This document shows, piece after piece, positions 2-64,000 of a stretch of 64,000 bases of DNA (position 1 is its first letter; each line of letters begins with the position of its first letter). Under the pieces are notes generated by a model, which had not been told where the DNA came from, did no database searches, and saw only the letters and a program-made list of their open reading frames with translations. A program made the translations under genes and the position numbers. The stretch is from positions 50,769 through 114,768 of IMG/VR virus record IMGVR_UViG_651703056_000001; one strand, given 5' to 3'. This DNA is from a virus (taxonomy: Duplodnaviria > Caudoviricetes).

Positions 2-1567
2 ATTAAGGGAGTTAAATACCATATTAAATTCACTAATGGTGGTGAAGTCACAGAGGATTTAACAGAAGAAAAGACAAGTGATATTGATGGAACAACTGTG
101 ACATTTTCACTTGACCCAACAGTTTATACAAAAACAATCTTTAAAGATGAAGATGTCCGTGAGATTGCACACCGTTATGCTGTTAGTTCAAACAAGATTA
201 CAGTCGATTATATTCATGGAGAAACTGAATTAACATATCATTATACAGATTTGAAAGAATATTATTCAGAACTTACAAGTGCTGTCAACACAAGTGGGAT
301 TGTCTTTGGTGATTTGGTTGAGTATCAAGATACAATTACGAGTAATCAACATGATGTTTTCACATCTCATGAAGAATTAACTTCTCTTTCGATTGCATTA
401 TCAACCTCAACAACACCGACACAAGAATCTTACTTAAACTTAAACTATTTGCCTAACGGTGGGAAGATTAACGAAGGAATCATTAATGGTATTAAACTTT
501 ACGTTAATAAATACTGTCGTGCAAATAATCTTTTTCCTAAGAAAGTCAACTCTTTCTCAGACTCAGACATCACAGAATCATTTAGTTTCGTAGCTGTTAT
601 GTTTTCAAACAATGTTGAGTTTGCAAATCAAACTAAATTCTCTACAAATAAAGAACTATATAAAGAAGTTGCTAAACGCAGGGTTACACAAATCTTAGAA
701 GTCACAGAGATTGAAGACCCTAAAAACTTTAAAGACATTATTAATCACTTATTGCTTGTTCAAAAAGAGAATACAGTCAACGCTAAACACAAAGAGAAAC
801 TTAAAAAGAAATTGACTGAAAAAGTAGATACAATGTCAAATCGTATTGACAAGCTAGTTGACTCTCGTGTTCACGGAGAAGAAGCGGAGCTTTATCTAGC
901 AGAGGGAGATTCAGCTCATGGTTCAGTAGTTTCAGCTCGTGATAGTAAGTTCCAAGCAAGTATGCCTATGGGCGGTAAGTTCCTTAACGTTGAAAAGGCA
1001 ATGAACATTGAGGATATTGTTAATAATGAAACAATTATGAATGTTATTAAAGCACTTGGTTGTGGAATTGATTTAGGTAAGAAACAAAAAGACTTGCCTA
1101 AATTCGACATTACTAAGCTACGCTATGGAAAAATTATTTGTGCATCAGATGAAGACCCAGATGGTGCACAAATTCAATGCTTAATTATCACTCTGTTTTA
1201 TAAGTTAATGCCAGAAATTATTCATACTGGTCGCCTATACTTGGCTCAAACACCTTTGTTTGAAATTAAGCTTAAGGATGACTCAGTTCTGTATGCTTAT
1301 ACAGATGAGGGACGTGATGAAATTCTTAAAGAACAAGGGAGTAAAGTGGTTCAATACACACGAGCAAAAGGCCTTGGGGAGCTGGATGCACACATTATGG
1401 CTGAGACAGCAATGAATCCTGAAACTCGTCACTTGACACGTGTCACAATTGAAGAAGCTAAACATGCAGAACAGGCTATCGTTGACTGGATGGGTACAAA
1501 CGTAGACAATCGTAAACTATTCATTTCACGAAACCTTAATAAATTTACTAAAGAAGGGTTAGAATAA
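2..1567 (+). CDS. gyrB: Type IIA topoisomerase subunit B (GyrB/ParE-like), 5'-truncated by window edge
   Basis: Frame is open from base 2. Toprim motifs LAEGDSA, PMGGKFLNV, SDEDPDG and RAKGLGE are present, and it sits directly upstream of the A subunit. Confidence 0.92.
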   Translation: MKGVKYHIKFTNGGEVTEDLTEEKTSDIDGTTVTFSLDPTVYTKTIFKDEDVREIAHRYAVSSNKITVDYIHGETELTYHYTDLKEYYSELTSAVNTSGIVFGDLVEYQDTITSNQHDVFTSHEELTSLSIALSTSTTPTQESYLNLNYLPNGGKINEGIINGIKLYVNKYCRANNLFPKKVNSFSDSDITESFSFVAVMFSNNVEFANQTKFSTNKELYKEVAKRRVTQILEVTEIEDPKNFKDIINHLLLVQKENTVNAKHKEKLKKKLTEKVDTMSNRIDKLVDSRVHGEEAELYLAEGDSAHGSVVSARDSKFQASMPMGGKFLNVEKAMNIEDIVNNETIMNVIKALGCGIDLGKKQKDLPKFDITKLRYGKIICASDEDPDGAQIQCLIITLFYKLMPEIIHTGRLYLAQTPLFEIKLKDDSVLYAYTDEGRDEILKEQGSKVVQYTRAKGLGELDAHIMAETAMNPETRHLTRVTIEEAKHAEQAIVDWMGTNVDNRKLFISRNLNKFTKEGLE

Positions 1568-1568
1568 A

Positions 1569-3683
1569 ATGGAAATTGTAGAAAAGGAATTACAACATAT
1601 TGTGACGGACAATATGGGTCAATATTCAACATATGTACTACTTTCACGTGCTATTCCTGATTTTCGAGACGGATTAAAACCATCTTATCGAAGAATTTTA
1701 TGGGCTATGCAAGAAATGAAAGCTACAAGATTTACAAAATCATTTAACGTAGCTGGTGCAGTCATGCTTTATCACCCTCACGGTTCAACATATCCAACTA
1801 TGGTTGGTATGGCTCAGAAAGATAGCCAACTAAATCCTATGGTTATAGGAAAGGGGAACTTCGGACAACATGCAAGCGAATTAGCCTTTGGTGCTGAACG
1901 TTATACAGAAGTTAAACTTTCTGCTATTGGTCTCGACATGATGGCTGATGTTAAAAAGGGCGGTGTTGACTTCATTGATAACTATGATGGTACACGTAGG
2001 ATTCCAGAAGTGTTTCCAGTTAAATATCCAACTATATTAGCTTATGCTCAATCAGGAATTGGTGTAGGATTTAGTTCAAGTATTCCTTCATTTAACACAA
2101 CCGAATTGTGTGAAGCTATTATTAAACGAATTGAAGATAATGAACAGACATTGCTTATTCCCGACTTTGGTACTGGTGCTTATATTATCAATGACCCTGA
2201 TGTTATCAAGTCAATCAATGAAAATGGTAGTGGTTCAATCAATCAACGTGCTAAAGTTGAGTTTGATAAAGATAGTCGTGAGATTATTGTTAAAGAAATT
2301 CCTTATGGAACAACAAAAGAGAAAATCATCGAACGTATTATTAAATTAAATAAAGAAGATAAGCTCAAAGAAGTTGCTAAAGTAGAAGATACAAGTGGAT
2401 TGAAAGGTCTTGAAATTGTTATCACAGCTAAACGTGGTGTTGACCTTGAACAACTACTTGAAAAACTTTATCAAATGACACCGATGCAAGCAAGCTATTC
2501 TACCAACTTAATGGTTATTAATCGTGAAGGATTACCAGAAAAAATGGGTGTATGGACACTTATTGCTAAGTGGTTAGATTGGCGCACAGATACATACCAA
2601 CGTATGATTACAAAAGATATTCAAACTAAACAAGTACAGCTTGAAATTTTGTACGGATTGGAAAATATCAAAGATGATTTGGAACATGTAATCAAAATTA
2701 TTCGTAATTCTACAGATGATAATGTCATTCAAAATCTATCTAGCGAGTTTAATTTGAGTAAACTTCAAGCAGAACGTGTTTCAGGGTTGAAGCTTAAAAA
2801 TCTTACAACTACTTTCATTAAAAAACAATTGAGTAGTATTAAGAGTCTCGAAAAAGAAATTGAACAACTTGAATGGACAGTTGAAAAACCTCAGCGTATC
2901 CATAAATTGATTGTTCAAGATATGAAAGATGTTATTGCTCAATTTGGAACACCTCGTAAATCACAACTCATTGACAAATCTATAGTAGCTAAGAAAGCAA
3001 AACTTTCTCCTGTAAATACTGTAGAAGAATATAATGTAAAAGTTATTGTAACTAAAGATGGTTATGTTAAAAAGATTCCTTTGACTTCTCTTCGTGGTAA
3101 TGCAGAGATTCAATTTAAAGAAGGAGATACCCCCACATCAGAAATTGATACTGATAATGGAGAAGAACTTCTTATCTTCACAAATAAACAGAATGTTTAT
3201 AAGAAACAACTTAATGATTTGAGTGATACTAAACCAAAAGATTTAGGTAATTACATTCCATCTCTAATTGATTTAGAAAAGGGCGAAGAAATTAAGGGTA
3301 TTATAACGCTTTCTAAGGACACCAAATACGTTCTTTTGGGATTTGAAGACGGAAAGGTCGCTAAAGTCAACGTAGAGGCTTATAGAACGTCCACAAAGCG
3401 TTCTAAACTTAAGAATGGTGTAGTTGGTAAAATGATAGTTTTACTGACGACATTAACTGACGATGTAGATATTATGTCTATCTCTGAAAGTAATAAAGCT
3501 ATCGTTACTAACACATCTATGATTTCTGCTAAAAATTCTAAAGCAACACAAGGTATTACTAACCAAAAATTAAAAGAAGGAGAATCAATTAAGAAATTAC
3601 TTGTTCTTCAAGAAGATGAAGAGGATAATCGAGAATATTATCGTGTACAATCAGCGGGTGCTGGTAAGAAATTTAAAGGATAA
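1569..3683 (+). CDS. gyrA: Type IIA topoisomerase subunit A (GyrA/ParC-like)
   Basis: Motifs RAIPDFRDGLKP, YHPHG, GNFG and AERYTE (catalytic Tyr); C-terminal beta-pinwheel-like repeats without an obvious GyrA-box. Confidence 0.92.
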   Translation: MEIVEKELQHIVTDNMGQYSTYVLLSRAIPDFRDGLKPSYRRILWAMQEMKATRFTKSFNVAGAVMLYHPHGSTYPTMVGMAQKDSQLNPMVIGKGNFGQHASELAFGAERYTEVKLSAIGLDMMADVKKGGVDFIDNYDGTRRIPEVFPVKYPTILAYAQSGIGVGFSSSIPSFNTTELCEAIIKRIEDNEQTLLIPDFGTGAYIINDPDVIKSINENGSGSINQRAKVEFDKDSREIIVKEIPYGTTKEKIIERIIKLNKEDKLKEVAKVEDTSGLKGLEIVITAKRGVDLEQLLEKLYQMTPMQASYSTNLMVINREGLPEKMGVWTLIAKWLDWRTDTYQRMITKDIQTKQVQLEILYGLENIKDDLEHVIKIIRNSTDDNVIQNLSSEFNLSKLQAERVSGLKLKNLTTTFIKKQLSSIKSLEKEIEQLEWTVEKPQRIHKLIVQDMKDVIAQFGTPRKSQLIDKSIVAKKAKLSPVNTVEEYNVKVIVTKDGYVKKIPLTSLRGNAEIQFKEGDTPTSEIDTDNGEELLIFTNKQNVYKKQLNDLSDTKPKDLGNYIPSLIDLEKGEEIKGIITLSKDTKYVLLGFEDGKVAKVNVEAYRTSTKRSKLKNGVVGKMIVLLTTLTDDVDIMSISESNKAIVTNTSMISAKNSKATQGITNQKLKEGESIKKLLVLQEDEEDNREYYRVQSAGAGKKFKG

Positions 3684-4866: not shown

Positions 4867-5212
4867 AGTTTACAAATGTCGAGCACAAATTAATACACCT
4901 TATCTGACATCAAATTCACGTTCAGGATTCTTTAAAAAAGGAGAAGACTTTCTCATGTATCGTAGCTCAAAAGGTACATGGGTTGTAAGTTCTCCTAAGA
5001 ACTCAACAATGCACACAAACGCTATTCCAATCAAACATGCTTTTGATACGAAGCGCTCATGGCTCTTAGACCTTAATATCACGAGTATTGTGAATATTTT
5101 TGAAGCACCAAACAAGACACATCTACGTCACTCATTCGCTCTATTCAAATACCCTAGCTTTGCAAATTTTGTAAATATAGAGAATTTTGAACTCAATCTT
5201 AAAGGAGAATAA
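4859..5212 (+). CDS. Hypothetical protein
   Basis: ATG at 4859 after GAAGGG overlaps the previous stop; part of an operon chain. Confidence 0.6.
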   Translation: MIKVYKCRAQINTPYLTSNSRSGFFKKGEDFLMYRSSKGTWVVSSPKNSTMHTNAIPIKHAFDTKRSWLLDLNITSIVNIFEAPNKTHLRHSFALFKYPSFANFVNIENFELNLKGE

Positions 5213-5214
5213 TA

Positions 5215-5733
5215 ATGAACAAAATTAAAATTTACTTTGCCAGCCCATTATTTTCAGATATGGAACGTTGGTTCAATACCGATATTGTTGACAGCTTACG
5301 CTACACTCTTCCTGAAAATGTAGAGATTTATCTACCACAGGAAAATGAAGCAATTAATGATAAGTCAGGATATGCAAACTCTGTAATGATTGCAGAAGCT
5401 GATACAAATGAACTATTAAGTTCTGACTTTATTGTAGCTGTCTTAGACGGTGCAACAATTGATGTTGGTGTAGCTAGTGAAATTGGAGTTGCCTATGCTA
5501 AAGGCATTCCAGTTATTGGTCTGTATTCAGATTCACGTCAAGGTGCTTTTGGAAACACAAACAAAATCAATGCTCTTGAAGAAGTGGGAGAATCCCAATT
5601 CTCTTATATCAATCTCTATACTGTAGGATTAGTTAAATCCAACGGTGCTCTATTTAAAGATGTTAGCGACTGGTTCAACTACATTGTTGACGAAGCTAAA
5701 AAATTATCAGAAGAAAAGGAAACAAATGACTAA
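5215..5733 (+). CDS. Nucleoside 2-deoxyribosyltransferase family protein
   Basis: Motifs IYFASPLFS, YLPQE, D..SSDFIVAVLDG and DVGVASEIGVAYAKGIPV (catalytic Glu motif). Confidence 0.85.
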   Translation: MNKIKIYFASPLFSDMERWFNTDIVDSLRYTLPENVEIYLPQENEAINDKSGYANSVMIAEADTNELLSSDFIVAVLDGATIDVGVASEIGVAYAKGIPVIGLYSDSRQGAFGNTNKINALEEVGESQFSYINLYTVGLVKSNGALFKDVSDWFNYIVDEAKKLSEEKETND

Positions 5734-50703: not shown

Positions 50704-51130
50704 ATACTGCACCTACAAACGTATATTTTGTAACTTTTACCGCTGTCTCTCTTTTAATCTCTTTATAAAAATCTTTTAATTGGTTAATTTGATTTGCTTG
50801 CGAAAGTATCTTAAAATCAGAATCACTAAGAGCTTGTTCAAGAGTCTCATTACGAATCATGATTTGTTTGAAGTATTCTACAATCATAAGCATTGCTAGA
50901 ATTTCAATTTCTAAATTAGTAAGGTCTGCATTGATATTAACTACCTTTGGTAAAGTTTTCTCTCCATCAGCATCTGTAGATAAGTCCTTCGGACATTGTA
51001 CAAATTCAGAACTTGCTGTTCTGTAATATCCGAATAAAACTGATTCTACATAGTCTTTATCATCGAGGAACTTATAGTCTGAAATTTTCTGCAAGAAACT
51101 ACTATAAACTCTTGTGATGTTAGTTGACAT
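50690..51130 (-). CDS. Putative head-tail adaptor
   Basis: Helical ~146 aa downstream of the capsid genes; EIEILA and SQAN pattern. Confidence 0.55.
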   Translation of the reverse strand: MSTNITRVYSSFLQKISDYKFLDDKDYVESVLFGYYRTASSEFVQCPKDLSTDADGEKTLPKVVNINADLTNLEIEILAMLMIVEYFKQIMIRNETLEQALSDSDFKILSQANQINQLKDFYKEIKRETAVKVTKYTFVGAVYDKR

Positions 51131-60396: not shown

Positions 60397-61722
60397 TTAA
60401 CCCTCGTCTAATAAATTTGCCATTTGAGCAACGGCTGAACGTTCTGTTTTGTCCAGAGTTACTTGTGCGTAAAGTTCTTGACCAGCAAGCTTTCGCAATG
60501 CGTTCACACCATTATTATATTTAAATTTATCGCTATCGGTTTGTTCGCTATCTCCATTAAACCAGATTTGAGAACCATCGGATACACGACTTAGTAACAA
60601 TTGAATATGTTCACGTGTGTTAGATTGTACTTCTGTCACATAAATAATTGCATTTTTAATATCACGACCACGAATGAAACCTAAATGTTGTACTTCAATT
60701 TTTCCTTGAAGCATCAATTCATCTAAAATAGCCTCATCTCCACCTAGATGGTCAACCATTGGCATTAAAAATGGTTTTAGTTTTTCTTCAAGACTATTCG
60801 GTAAGAATCCAATTGGGTTAGAATCTTTAACCTCAACATTGTTACGAACCCAAATTAGTTTGTCAATTGGACTTGCATCATCCATTACTAATGAAAGGGC
60901 TTGACCCAACATTAGGTAATCTTTACCAGCACCAAATGTCCCAAAGAGTGCCTTAACTTTAGTCTCAGGGTCTTTAAGCATGTCGACTGCACAACGCTGA
61001 CGGACGTTACGTGGCTTAATATTTTCTTGATACCCTTTAATCATAGGTGTTCCAATTCGCTGAAATCCGTCTTTAGAGTTATATTTAAATAGCCCAACGT
61101 CTTTATATCCAACATGTTCACCTTTACTATTATATGTCTCTTGTGCTTTGTCAAGAAAAACAATGTACTCATTCTCTTCAAATGGTGTATCTTTTGGTAC
61201 AGTATAATCTTTATTGGCTGTTGACTTATAAATCTCTGTTTCAATGTGGTCTAGTAGCAGTTCTCCACTACCACTATTTTCATCATTGATAAAGATATTT
61301 CTAACCCCCTCATAAATAGTTTTATCTTTCTCACCGAGACTAGGAATTATAACTGGAATACCCAACCCCGTTGCCTTAAGATACATTAGAACATCATTTG
61401 TGATGATTCCATACCCTTTTTCTTCTGCAAATGAGATAATTACATTGTCAGCATAGCTATCTGTATACTCTGTTGTATTTTTGACAGATGTGATATCAAA
61501 GATATCTCCATTATTCTCTTTTACATAATTCAATAAGATTCGTTTAACATTCCGAATACCATACTGTAATACTTGATTTGACTTTTTGAGTTCTAGGTCT
61601 TCAATTTCTTTGAGAACAATGCTTGGAATTACAACGTCATATTTATCAAGCAAGTTTGGGTCATTCAATACAGCATTAGTGTCAATAACGTATTTAATCT
61701 TTTTGTCCATATTCATCCTCAA
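60397..61722 (-). CDS. phoH: PIN-domain + PhoH-family ATPase (PhoH2/YlaK-like)
   Basis: PIN motifs VIDTN, EID, AD..I and ITND; PhoH motifs GTFGAGKD, IGFLP, IRGR and GD.EQ.D. Confidence 0.88.
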   Translation of the reverse strand: MRMNMDKKIKYVIDTNAVLNDPNLLDKYDVVIPSIVLKEIEDLELKKSNQVLQYGIRNVKRILLNYVKENNGDIFDITSVKNTTEYTDSYADNVIISFAEEKGYGIITNDVLMYLKATGLGIPVIIPSLGEKDKTIYEGVRNIFINDENSGSGELLLDHIETEIYKSTANKDYTVPKDTPFEENEYIVFLDKAQETYNSKGEHVGYKDVGLFKYNSKDGFQRIGTPMIKGYQENIKPRNVRQRCAVDMLKDPETKVKALFGTFGAGKDYLMLGQALSLVMDDASPIDKLIWVRNNVEVKDSNPIGFLPNSLEEKLKPFLMPMVDHLGGDEAILDELMLQGKIEVQHLGFIRGRDIKNAIIYVTEVQSNTREHIQLLLSRVSDGSQIWFNGDSEQTDSDKFKYNNGVNALRKLAGQELYAQVTLDKTERSAVAQMANLLDEG

Positions 61723-62062
61723 ATTTTTCTATTTCAGCAATAAGTTCTAAATCTTCTTTACGTTGCTTTACATTACGTTTGAATTTGTCAGCAGGCTTAT
61801 ATTGAATGCGATAATAGTCGTCAAACACCTTACTCTCTCTGGCTGTTACATCATAAAAACTAAACCCTTTAATTAATTTTGTCTTTAGTACCATGACATT
61901 CTTCCAGCGGAACTCTCCTGTCTCACGTAACTTGGTTGACATATGTCTTTCAAAAGCACTAATAACAGCCTTAACATCTTTCTGTGTTATTCCTAACTCT
62001 CGAAGTTCATCATCTTCCCAAATTTCCTGAGACAGCGTTCTGTAGTAATTTTTTTTACTCAT
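61694..62062 (-). CDS. HU/IHF-like DNA-binding protein
   Basis: ITQKDVKAVISAF...GEFRW..V...YKPADKFKR resembles the HU fold. Confidence 0.6.
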   Translation of the reverse strand: MSKKNYYRTLSQEIWEDDELRELGITQKDVKAVISAFERHMSTKLRETGEFRWKNVMVLKTKLIKGFSFYDVTARESKVFDDYYRIQYKPADKFKRNVKQRKEDLELIAEIEKFEDEYGQKD

Positions 62063-62322
62063 AACACGTCATCCTCTACAATCATAAGTTTTGTTATAGG
62101 TTTATTCTTTTCATTCAAAAATACAAGATTGAGATTATCTCTGTCTATAAAAACTTTTACAATACTCATTTCTGATTCATTTGTAAAATCTTCTGTATTC
62201 TTGTAAGAATTAAATACTCGATACTCTTCAACTAAAGGACTAATCTTAAAGTGAATACCTCTTGTTGTAAAAATATTGTCTGCATCAACAATGCACTCTT
62301 CTAAAAATTTTAAATTATTCAA
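62059..62322 (-). CDS. Hypothetical protein
   Basis: Coupled ORF in the operon. Confidence 0.55.
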   Translation of the reverse strand: MNNLKFLEECIVDADNIFTTRGIHFKISPLVEEYRVFNSYKNTEDFTNESEMSIVKVFIDRDNLNLVFLNEKNKPITKLMIVEDDVL

Positions 62323-62651
62323 TCTTCTAAACTATCCTCAATTCCATATTTTATTAATTCCTCCATAGATAAATCTGTAAAAGGAATATTTTTTTTGTCA
62401 TATCCATTCATTTTCATACTTTTCTTTCTGTGTATGATTGAATTATCTCCACGTTTATCTTCTTTATCTATGAACCAAATGATATAATTTGAGCATCCAT
62501 TTAAGAAGAATTTAACTTGAGAACTATCCATATTATCCATAATTATTTCATCGTTTTTTGAAATCAACTCATCTACCAGTGTGAGTCTTTGATTAAGACT
62601 ATCGAAATCTGGTAATTTAATTTCTTCACCGCTAGGTAATTTTAATTTCAT
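62319..62651 (-). CDS. Hypothetical protein
   Basis: AAGGA RBS; coupled ORF. Confidence 0.6.
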   Translation of the reverse strand: MKLKLPSGEEIKLPDFDSLNQRLTLVDELISKNDEIIMDNMDSSQVKFFLNGCSNYIIWFIDKEDKRGDNSIIHRKKSMKMNGYDKKNIPFTDLSMEELIKYGIEDSLED

Positions 62652-63036
62652 TGTTTTCCTTTTTATCCTTTACTGCAACAGAATTTATCTTGAGAGATAT
62701 TCTTGATAATGATTTAAAAATTCCAGAATTTCCTAATTTTAATTCTCTAGATATTTCTTTGATACTGCACCCCTCAAATAACATATTAATCAATTTGGAG
62801 TTCTTCTTGTTGAAGTTACAAACCTCAATATATTCATCTAATTTAGAATAGATATCATCAACATAATCAACAAGTTCTATGTTAAATTCCCTGTTTTCGA
62901 AAGATAGAAACTTTGAACGTTGTTGATATGTTACTGCTTCAATAATTGTCTGTTTGTTCAAGATAACATTACGAACAATATCATAATTAGTGAAATCAAT
63001 GTCGTGTTCTAAAAAATCATTAATTCCTGTATTTAT
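62632..63036 (-). CDS. Putative transcription regulator with C-terminal sigma region-4/LuxR-like HTH; start uncertain (possibly ATA)
   Basis: MLFEGCSIKEISRELKLGNSGIFKSLSRI HTH pattern; first gene behind the promoter at 63071-63099. Confidence 0.55.
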   Translation of the reverse strand: MNTGINDFLEHDIDFTNYDIVRNVILNKQTIIEAVTYQQRSKFLSFENREFNIELVDYVDDIYSKLDEYIEVCNFNKKNSKLINMLFEGCSIKEISRELKLGNSGIFKSLSRISLKINSVAVKDKKENNEIKIT

Positions 63037-63070
63037 TTCTATGCCCTCTTTTCTAATTAGTATACTATAT

Positions 63071-63099
63071 ATTATACCATTTTTAGCCAAAAAAGTCAA
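63071..63099 (-). promoter_or_regulatory. Leftward sigma70 promoter heading the minus-strand arm
   Basis: Minus strand TTGACT-17-TATAAT with TG. Confidence 0.8.
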
Positions 63100-63107
63100 G
63101 TATAATA

Positions 63108-63136
63108 TTGTATTTTTTATAGTTTTCTACTATAAT
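63108..63136 (+). promoter_or_regulatory. Rightward promoter candidate into the non-coding region
   Basis: TTGTAT-17-TATAAT, back to back with the leftward promoter. Confidence 0.5.
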
Positions 63137-63336
63137 ATAATCAAGTTTTCAAAGCTTGAAAAGCTGTGAGCTATCGCTCACTCTGTCGCTTTTCTGGCGC
63201 TTTCTACTCATGGAACAGTCCGAGCCTGTTCCATTTCGTAGGACGGTTATAGCTACTCTTTAAATTATTTTAAAAGGGACTTAGTTCTCCTGTTATATAT
63301 TCTAAAAAAAAAAAATAATAAATGTATAATTTGTAC

Positions 63337-63365
63337 TTGACATTGATAAAATATTATGGTATAAT
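63337..63365 (+). promoter_or_regulatory. Consensus sigma70 promoter with no downstream ORF
   Basis: TTGACA-17-TATAAT with TG and an upstream A-tract. Confidence 0.8.
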
Positions 63366-63407
63366 TATATATATATAAAAATAATATAAAAATAAACCAG
63401 GATAAGG

Positions 63408-63504
63408 GGATAACGGTGGTCTCCGTTGTAAAATAAAACTTGATGAGGATAACGGTGGTCTCCGTTGTAAAATAACAATAAAACAGGATAATGGTGGTCT
63501 CCAT
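63408..63504 (+). repeat. Three hairpin repeats with an exact 39-bp period
   Basis: ggataacggtggtctccgttgtaaaataa at 63408 and 63447; variant ggataatggtggtctccat at 63486. Confidence 0.9.
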
Positions 63505-64000
63505 AATCTTACTCGGCTCAGTGAGAGTGTGTAAGCTGTTAAGTACAAGCAGAAAAAGACAAAGTACTATCCTTTTTCTTGAACGAGCTAGGCTCGTGAA
63601 AGGAAAAGACGACGCCAGAAAAGCGCCCAAGTGAACGCAGTTCACAGCTTTTCAAGTCGCAAAGAAATAAAATTGAATATGTTGTATTCTTACCTGATGA
63701 TTACAACAGTATGTATATGAAATTCGGCTGAGTAAGTATCGAAAAGTAATGAGTTAGGAAGAATAACATCTATTTGTCTTTTTAAGTTGTAATGTAAGTT
63801 ACTGTAACCACGAAAGCAGAACGCCCCCTGCATTACGGAAAAAGTTATTCCACCGTTAATCGAAGGTGTCAGGCATGAAGTCGATTTGAGTATATAGGAT
63901 AGATACGAGAGAGGTCTATTATTCTTATATACAATAGGGGGGGGAAAAGACCGTTTTCCAACTTTCAAAATTACACCCCCGAAAGGTCCGTTTTTTCAAA

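Follow-up and report, generated by a model that had tools for sequence, protein, structure and literature searches.

A hairpin array of variable copy number within an unannotated non-coding locus of 949-group Lactococcus phages

The array of 39-nt hairpin repeats that starts at position 63408 is real, lies beyond what chance would give, and is part of a larger, unannotated non-coding locus in the genome of a Lactococcus phage of the 949 group. It appears to belong to an early or replication-control RNA of the virus itself, and not to copy a bacterial antitoxin. The explanation that we favour, and hold tentatively, is that the array forms a 5′ hairpin domain, variable in copy number, of a non-coding unit some 680 nt long, which would act as RNA, or via its own transcription, in the origin or early-control region of the phage. 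The window, by which we mean the whole stretch of 64,000 nt that was analysed, is the right 64 kb of the 114,768-bp IMG/VR record IMGVR_UViG_651703056_000001 (record positions 50,769 to 114,768). Coordinates are those of the window, except where genome positions are indicated.

The last 900 bases of the window matched 19 Lactococcus phage records of the 949 group (genus Audreyjarvisvirus) with 84–94% identity, and in these records the matched region was the very end of the record, where no feature is annotated. The more distant phage PMBT69 matched the last 320 bases only, at approximately 70% identity, and no sequence similarity to other phage groups was found for these 900 bases. A 116-kb metagenomic viral contig and a metagenome contig read straight through the junction, from which we conclude that window position 64000 continues into record position 1. 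Over the whole genome, genes are encoded on the plus strand from 1 to 75 kb and on the minus strand from 76 to 113.9 kb; orientation thus switches near 75 kb and, divergently, at the 113.9 kb/0 junction, and the non-coding stretch of about 1050 bp that holds the array is therefore the sole point of divergence. The cumulative GC skew of the genome also turns at this stretch, which is not independent evidence for an origin, as the skew follows gene orientation in the same genome.

The leftward genes next to this stretch encode a 155-aa protein with a weak helix-turn-helix or sigma-like match, an HU-like protein, a 441-aa fusion of a PIN domain to a PhoH-like ATPase (60397–61722, minus strand) and a phosphoesterase. 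The fusion protein, encoded among the first leftward genes, is of a predicted RNA-cleaving helicase type and could process RNA of the phage or of the host. On the right side, beyond the junction, lie in this order an intrinsic terminator, a second promoter, a tyrosine recombinase gene and a gene for a RecD2-like helicase. The recombinase, which is XerC/D-like (Phage_integrase plus SAM-like domain), is encoded by the first rightward gene (genome positions 148–1167, plus strand, outside the window); it adjoins the non-coding locus in a phage of the virulent type, and the same gene is found in PMBT69. A scan for tRNA and tmRNA genes detected none within the 64-kb window.

A repeat search revealed one repeat family with three 39-nt copies, at 63408, 63447 and 63486, spaced by 39 and 39 nt, which confirms the arrangement described in an earlier note on this DNA. 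Units 1 (63408–63446) and 2 (63447–63485) are identical across 29 nt (GGATAACGGTGGTCTCCGTTGTAAAATAA); read on the plus strand as RNA, each has GGAUA, a 7-bp stem (AUAACGG/CCGUUGU) with the loop UGGUCU, and an A-rich tail. Unit 3 (63485–63510, plus strand; GGATAATGGTGGTCTCCAT) is a terminal variant in which AGGAU-A-AUGG would pair with CCAU-A-AUCUU around the same loop, and the compensatory change noticed earlier, from aACGG/CCGTt to ATGG/CCAT, is indeed present as C>T plus G>A. The segments that had been described as 10-nt variable spacers are instead the tail of a true 39-nt tandem unit, the whole of which, including the tail, is repeated exactly in relatives such as AM5; a CRISPR-like reading of the array was rejected for this reason. 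Directly to the left of unit 1, the sequence GGATAAGG (63400–63407, plus strand) is what remains of a further unit, 8 nt that were spared by a deletion of 31 nt when the window is compared with phage P1048.

A 19-nt degenerate pattern, searched with up to 3 mismatches, matched only the three unit sites in the 64 kb; in shuffled sequences it had a mean of 0.01 matches, and none of 100 shuffles contained three. With a 15-nt core and up to 2 mismatches, the whole 114,768-bp genome yielded one extra match (on the reverse strand, with 2 mismatches), which equals the control level. Among viral sequences, a scan with the core found tandem matches in 949-like contigs only, at 5 of 18 loci.

Unit number was compared across the 949 group, as the earlier note had proposed, by direct reading of nine sequences, namely the window, seven phages and one viral contig. 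Two units are present in phiL47, WRP3 and the viral contig, three in the window, AM1, AM4 and LW81, four in P1048 and five in AM5. The hairpin part of the upstream units is identical across all nine sequences, and the last unit, with ATGG/CCAT, is invariant in all of them. Such differences suggest that units were gained and lost by recombination between tandem copies. Conservation and covariation in related phages, the absence of which, together with that of a transcript, the earlier note would have counted against its proposal, were both found, and they extend to PMBT69. This phage has kept the consensus promoter and carries a single unit at the matching place, the counterpart of unit 3, which consists of AGGAUA followed by the stem AUAGUAG/CUACAGU with the loop UAACCU. 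When the three unit types were compared, 19 of 21 stem cells were paired and three of the seven pairs were changed on both sides, a score reached by 21 of 500 shuffles, with 0–1 in slid controls. This covariation, drawn from three sequence types, lends moderate support to a conserved hairpin or dyad.

Folding of the units gave a more modest picture. The plus-strand RNA hairpins (−8.0 and −7.3 kcal/mol) are more stable than those of the minus strand (−4.8 and −5.0 kcal/mol), because the stems use U-G pairs. Taken singly, the hairpins exceeded shuffles only to a modest degree (z about −1.9; 11 of 200 shuffles did as well), the PMBT69 hairpin was no better than shuffles (z −0.11), and RNAalifold indicated a competing pairing of unit 3 with 63566–63579. 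Further, phage-specific hairpins lie 3′ of the array (63511–63564, plus strand), and the substitutions within the 949 group fall mostly in their loops or preserve their pairs.

Other known elements were also considered for the units. An intrinsic terminator in each unit was rejected, as the stem is followed by A-rich and not by U-rich sequence on the plus strand. Comparison by eye with consensus sequences showed that the units share only TTATCC with a DnaA box, which is not kept in PMBT69, and that resemblances to IHF and CsrA sites have no conservation between phages.

As the earlier note had stated, the array follows a perfect TTGACA-17-TATAAT promoter; this sigma-70-type promoter (63337–63365, plus strand) has 12 of 12 consensus positions and a TG extension. 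The predicted start lies near 63372, the array begins 43 nt past the −10 box, and the promoter is invariant in all 8 aligned phages as well as being present in PMBT69. From 63337 to the first rightward gene, the only terminator-like site on the plus strand is the one just past the junction, a predicted intrinsic terminator with the stem GCGTG...CACGC followed by a T run (genome positions 11–40 plus the T run, about 11–48 nt past the junction); in one relative its stem carries two changes, each of which gives a G-U pair. A second strong promoter (TTGAAC-17-TATAAT, genome positions 86–114, plus strand) lies between this terminator and the first rightward gene. Between them, the promoter and terminator signals delimit about 680 nt of non-coding sequence as one unit, which carries the array at the 5′ end and lies at the point of divergence, a context that was absent from the earlier note.

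On the opposite strand, a leftward promoter (TTGACT-17-TATAAT, 63071–63099, 11 of 12 positions, with TG) heads the 38-kb minus-strand gene block. Exact TTGAC[AT]-17-TATAAT promoters, nearly all with TG, number 30 on the plus strand (29 at 3.5–75 kb, plus the one at 63337), and the 38-kb minus-strand block has just one, at its head (63099). These counts suggest very different modes of transcription for the two blocks.

Promoter and array lie inside a 517-bp element (63146–63662), the ends of which are inverted copies of approximately 50 nt. Arm A (63146–63267) shares 88.6% identity with positions 4984–5106 of plasmid pW34D and contains a two-tier hairpin at 63158–63194; arm B (63565–63662), an inverted copy of the outer part of arm A, shares 89.8% identity with positions 5216–5313 of the plasmid and contains a two-tier hairpin at 63618–63653. 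The inner stem of arm B reads GTGAAC/GTTCAC in the window and the plasmid and GGGC/GCCC in the other phages, which indicates that the hairpin was kept while its sequence was replaced. Between arm A and the promoter lies an AT-rich spacer (63268–63336), in which a poly(A) run varies in length and LW81, WRP3 and phiL47 have deletions. To the left of arm A, the sequence TACTATAAT at 63129–63137 and its T-rich left flank are invariant in the aligned phages and are kept in PMBT69 amid diverged neighbours; it may be the −10 box of a plus-strand RNA over arm A, or part of an upstream element of the leftward promoter.

The plasmid pW34D is a 7.4-kb Lactococcus cremoris plasmid from a cheese factory, in which the arms occur in the same order as in the phage, with sharp homology edges, and flank 109 bp that contain neither promoter nor array (330-bp element). 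The whole 339 nt fold into one long hairpin (z −13.5), situated directly upstream of a 364-aa gene without a family match, and the miRNA-precursor-like Rfam matches obtained for pW34D in a permissive scan merely reflect this hairpin. Besides the arms, plasmid and phage share no sequence, and among 72,556 plasmids searched the element was found in pW34D only. PMBT69 is without the arms, though it has the promoter, the hairpin and the 3′ domain described below. The plasmid may owe the arms to the capture of a control or origin fragment from a phage, conceivably a natural decoy, or the arms may be a mobile palindromic element.

The 3′ part of the unit (63674–64000 and some 48 nt past the junction up to the terminator, plus strand; L018 1141–1506) is a conserved structured domain, here called region C. 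RNAalifold predicted 80 pairs, of which 19 are compensatory between the 949 group and PMBT69; slid controls had 0–2 such pairs and shuffles 2.7 on average. The invariant G-U pairs, of which there are several, point to RNA of the plus strand. Scans of viral and metagenome sequences for relatives of region C returned 949-group sequences only. Rfam gave no matches at the gathering threshold in the 64-kb window, nothing but two chance-level matches left of the promoter when 62900–64000 was searched with 4227 models at E up to 10, and no match in the locus of a junction-spanning relative at E up to 1. Together with the RNA-library contigs discussed below, this makes region C a candidate for a new structured RNA family. 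Within it, a G run of 5 to 8 is variable between phages and its partner C run changes between CCCCC and CCTCCC (63937–63944 and 63975–63979); the two runs are predicted to pair, and the G run may break assemblies.

Four RNA libraries from four studies aligned to 62000–64000. One transcriptomic run contained contigs at 63408–63475 and 63446–63587, with 100% identity and a depth of 2.5–3, on the array and just downstream of it. Three metatranscriptomes had one short contig each in region C, at 63720–63984, 63734–63917 and 63716–63930, and the starts of these contigs lie within 18 nt of one another, a weak hint of a discrete RNA end. The contigs of all libraries carry no strand, have a depth of 2.5–5 and may include carry-over of DNA. 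Transcription of the array is thus weakly supported by the libraries and, considering the contigs jointly with the promoter, we conclude that the array is probably transcribed, as had been proposed. Arm A and the 1.4 kb of genes to the left of the locus were free of contigs, and no inference is drawn from this absence. No contig bridges the array and region C either; the run with the array had no region C and the runs with region C had no array, so that the two may be separate or processed RNAs.

In the explanation that we favour, transcription would start at the promoter at 63337–63365, near 63372, the transcript would run through the array, the hairpins at 63511–63662 and the structured 3′ domain at 63674–64000, and it would end at the intrinsic terminator beyond the junction, just short of the second promoter and the first gene on the right. 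This unit would fill the sole site of divergence between the two gene blocks of the phage. The AGGAUA motif and the 7-bp hairpin with its 6-nt loop would constitute a repeated binding or 5′-stabilising module, the number of which would be changed by tandem recombination. A single long transcript and any binding of a protein by the units are inferred, and an origin role for the locus is suggested by its position and by the analogy with other phages that is drawn at the end.

A different interpretation, already raised in the earlier note, is that the units act as double-stranded DNA, as iterons or operators, and that each dyad (AACGG-N6-CCGTT) binds a dimeric protein of the phage or the host, in an origin complex or in regulation of the promoter. 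The dyad symmetry and the compensatory changes suit a palindromic DNA site no less than a hairpin, the array borders on a stretch at the point of divergence (63263–63407) that on reading the sequence consists mostly of A and T, and DNA-binding proteins are encoded nearby, namely the 155-aa protein with the weak helix-turn-helix or sigma-like match and the HU-like protein. However, a copy number that ranges from 1 in PMBT69 to 5 in AM5 would be atypical of an origin complex, the rest of the genome lacks the motif, the sites fall within a probably transcribed stretch, and the U-G pairs kept in the stems favour plus-strand RNA. In addition, the 39-bp period corresponds to about 3.7 helical turns, so that successive sites would face different sides of the helix, which counts against iterons. 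The phasing and the single unit of PMBT69 weaken the iteron proposal, which we consider unlikely, though the most probable of the alternatives to an RNA domain.

It could also be that any function resides in the invariant last unit alone, which would be the first helix of a long RNA, and that the upstream units are near-neutral tandem duplications produced by slippage or unequal recombination. Of all units, PMBT69 has a counterpart of the last alone, and this unit does not vary in the nine 949-group sequences, the upstream units are identical to one another and number 1 to 4, and the window has tolerated a deletion of 31 nt, which is not a whole unit. Nevertheless, at least one upstream unit of the ACGG/CCGT type is kept, unchanged in sequence, in all nine sequences; the phages differ by up to 16% in this region, which suggests that this unit type has been retained. 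Neutral duplication is, in our judgement, less probable again than DNA-binding sites.

The reading that the earlier note put forward most prominently is that RNA from the array serves in trans as a sponge or decoy, with hairpins that titrate a host defence or RNA-binding protein; a mimic of a type III antitoxin would be a special case. Type III systems, as outlined in the relevant part of a review, consist of a promoter, tandem repeats of 34–36 nt (2.8 to 5.5 copies), a terminator and a toxin gene, and the same part of that review describes pseudo-ToxI as resembling ToxI in sequence and as expanding in copy number in phage TE. The array resembles ToxI/antiQ and pseudo-ToxI, as outlined there, in having a promoter followed by tandem short units (39 nt, 2–5 copies) with A-rich linkers and in a copy number that can change between phages, and it is probably expressed from a host-type promoter. 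Unlike in type III systems, the array is not followed by a terminator and toxin gene; the next gene, about 900 nt downstream, is the tyrosine recombinase, and a profile search of the genome with PF13958 (ToxN/AbiQ family) found no match at E up to 1. The Rfam search for antitoxin RNAs that had been suggested gave no family match to the array at E up to 10, and no host array that could be mimicked was found. When 185,579 bacterial and archaeal species, each represented by one genome, were scanned with the core, at least 120 single matches turned up in unrelated taxa, about as many as chance would give, with no tandem among the matches listed; BLAST against the 72,556 plasmids, which is insensitive to units of 35 nt, matched arm B only and not the array. 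Moreover, AbiQ and AbiT are listed as effective against Audreyjarvisvirus in a 2026 review, and AbiQ would thus act against phages that bear the array, which is not what a pseudo-ToxI would lead one to expect.

Given that there is no ToxN/AbiQ-family gene, a recombinase as the next gene, no RNA-family match, no host tandem array among the matches listed and an AbiQ reported as effective, a type III antitoxin mimic is unlikely, and we regard a decoy of any kind as doubtful. In a broader version, which we consider equally doubtful, the array would be the multivalent, tunable 5′ domain of an undescribed, ornate RNA, some 680 nt long and common to 949-group phages and PMBT69, that titrates a host protein in trans and in which the gain and loss of units track selection by host strains. 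If this were true, the capture of the arms by a plasmid of a cheese starter would be a counter-move of the host.

The array might furthermore be the leader of a small gene. The earlier note saw no credible open reading frame; there is, however, a plus-strand frame of 47 aa that starts at 63491, at an ATG created by the change in unit 3 and is open in the window and in all 8 relatives of the 949 group, and the AGGA of the upstream units could be imagined as ribosome standby or regulatory sites for a peptide of 47 to 58 aa. AM1 differs from the window by 2 synonymous codons only (0 non-synonymous to 2 synonymous changes). On the other hand, the ratio of non-synonymous to synonymous changes is 7:2 in phiL47 and 3:3 in WRP3, the position of the stop shifts between 47 and 58 aa, the gap from AGGA to ATG is only 2 nt with the start inside the hairpin, the frame has no Pfam or PHROG match and no counterpart in PMBT69, and the pattern of substitutions fits RNA loops. 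Within the 949 group, changes in this frame appear near-neutral, and a small gene is very unlikely. Frames on the minus strand through the array are split by frameshifts among the relatives, and a mini-ORF of six codons (GTG...TAA), which units 1 and 2 both contain, was discarded, as PMBT69 has three stop codons at the same place. In the record of PMBT69, six short ‘hypothetical proteins’ of 32 to 70 aa are annotated over the homologous non-coding region (2357–3351); single-base indels relative to the 949 group and the covariation of the RNA suggest that these are not genes.

Least credible of all is a mobile or invertible cassette, with promoter and array as cargo, that the tyrosine recombinase might flip or move: although the inverted arms of about 50 nt bound the 517-bp element, the same arms enclose a 330-bp element with sharp edges in pW34D and the recombinase gene is the first on the right, all ten 949-group sequences seen have a single orientation, only 1 of the 72,556 plasmids has the element, PMBT69 keeps promoter, hairpin and 3′ domain without arms, and the RNA contigs, where alone such joints were sought, showed no recombination joint.

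Phages of the 949 group spoil dairy fermentations. In the open literature, with the founding 949 paper outside the scope of the search, we found nothing on the origin, early control or non-coding RNAs of this group, and open texts on phiL47 and the AM phages do not treat the origin, genome ends or non-coding regions, the word ‘repeat’ appearing only in their methods. The locus described here is a testable candidate for all three, that is, the origin, the early control and a non-coding RNA of the group, and the covarying 3′ domain is, in addition, a candidate for a new family of structured RNA for which there is evidence of expression.

Several known systems share features with a promoter-driven non-coding unit that carries a hairpin array at its 5′ end. 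The iterons of the lambda origin are dyad-symmetric, have a period of about 20–24 bp and nucleate the origin complex; as there, several short inverted repeats lie beside an AT-rich stretch and transcription from a promoter passes the site, but the period of the array is 39 bp, its copy number is not fixed and no initiator gene was identified. In Gram-positive bacteria and their phages, 5′ stabilisers such as those of SP82 early RNA and the cryIIIA STAB-SD combine a Shine-Dalgarno-like purine run with a 5′ hairpin. The units likewise have AGGA directly beside a hairpin near the 5′ end of the predicted transcript, with no start codon at the proper spacing; the likeness is one of sequence, and in contrast to these stabilisers the module is tandemly repeated here. 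GOLLD and ROOL are large phage-associated structured RNAs, and the unit resembles them as a putative structured non-coding RNA of several hundred nucleotides with strong covariation in phages of Lactobacillales, but none of the 4227 Rfam models matches it (62900–64000, E up to 10).

The closest analogue appears to be the promoter-driven non-coding transcript of the origin of lactococcal c2 phages. According to the section on the origin in PMC7150918, c2-type phages have their origin in the non-coding DNA that separates the divergent gene blocks, and the first two early promoters flank it. A non-coding transcript, PE1-T, arises from the first of these promoters and has been implicated in starting replication, and the origin region replicates a plasmid without phage proteins. 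The locus of the 949 group has the same layout as this c2-type (Ceduovirus) origin as described there, in a phage that likewise has a lactococcal host: it is non-coding, it separates two divergently transcribed blocks, and it is flanked by two host-type promoters of the same direction, the first of which fires into apparently non-coding sequence without a usable ribosome site, the one plus-strand frame that stays open in the 949 group having no counterpart in PMBT69. On account of this layout we read the array, by analogy, as the 5′ hairpin domain of a PE1-T-like transcript. The differences are that the two share no sequence similarity, that the present phage is approximately five times larger and has its own replication genes, and that tandem hairpin units are not mentioned in that section of the c2 description (PMC7150918). 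If the origin is c2-like, the region could serve to confer origin-decoy (Per-type) resistance to phages on starter strains, and pW34D with its arms may be a natural case of an origin decoy. We conclude that the locus is best filed as a variant of the promoter-driven non-coding unit of phage origin or control regions, with an unusual head of tandem hairpins.
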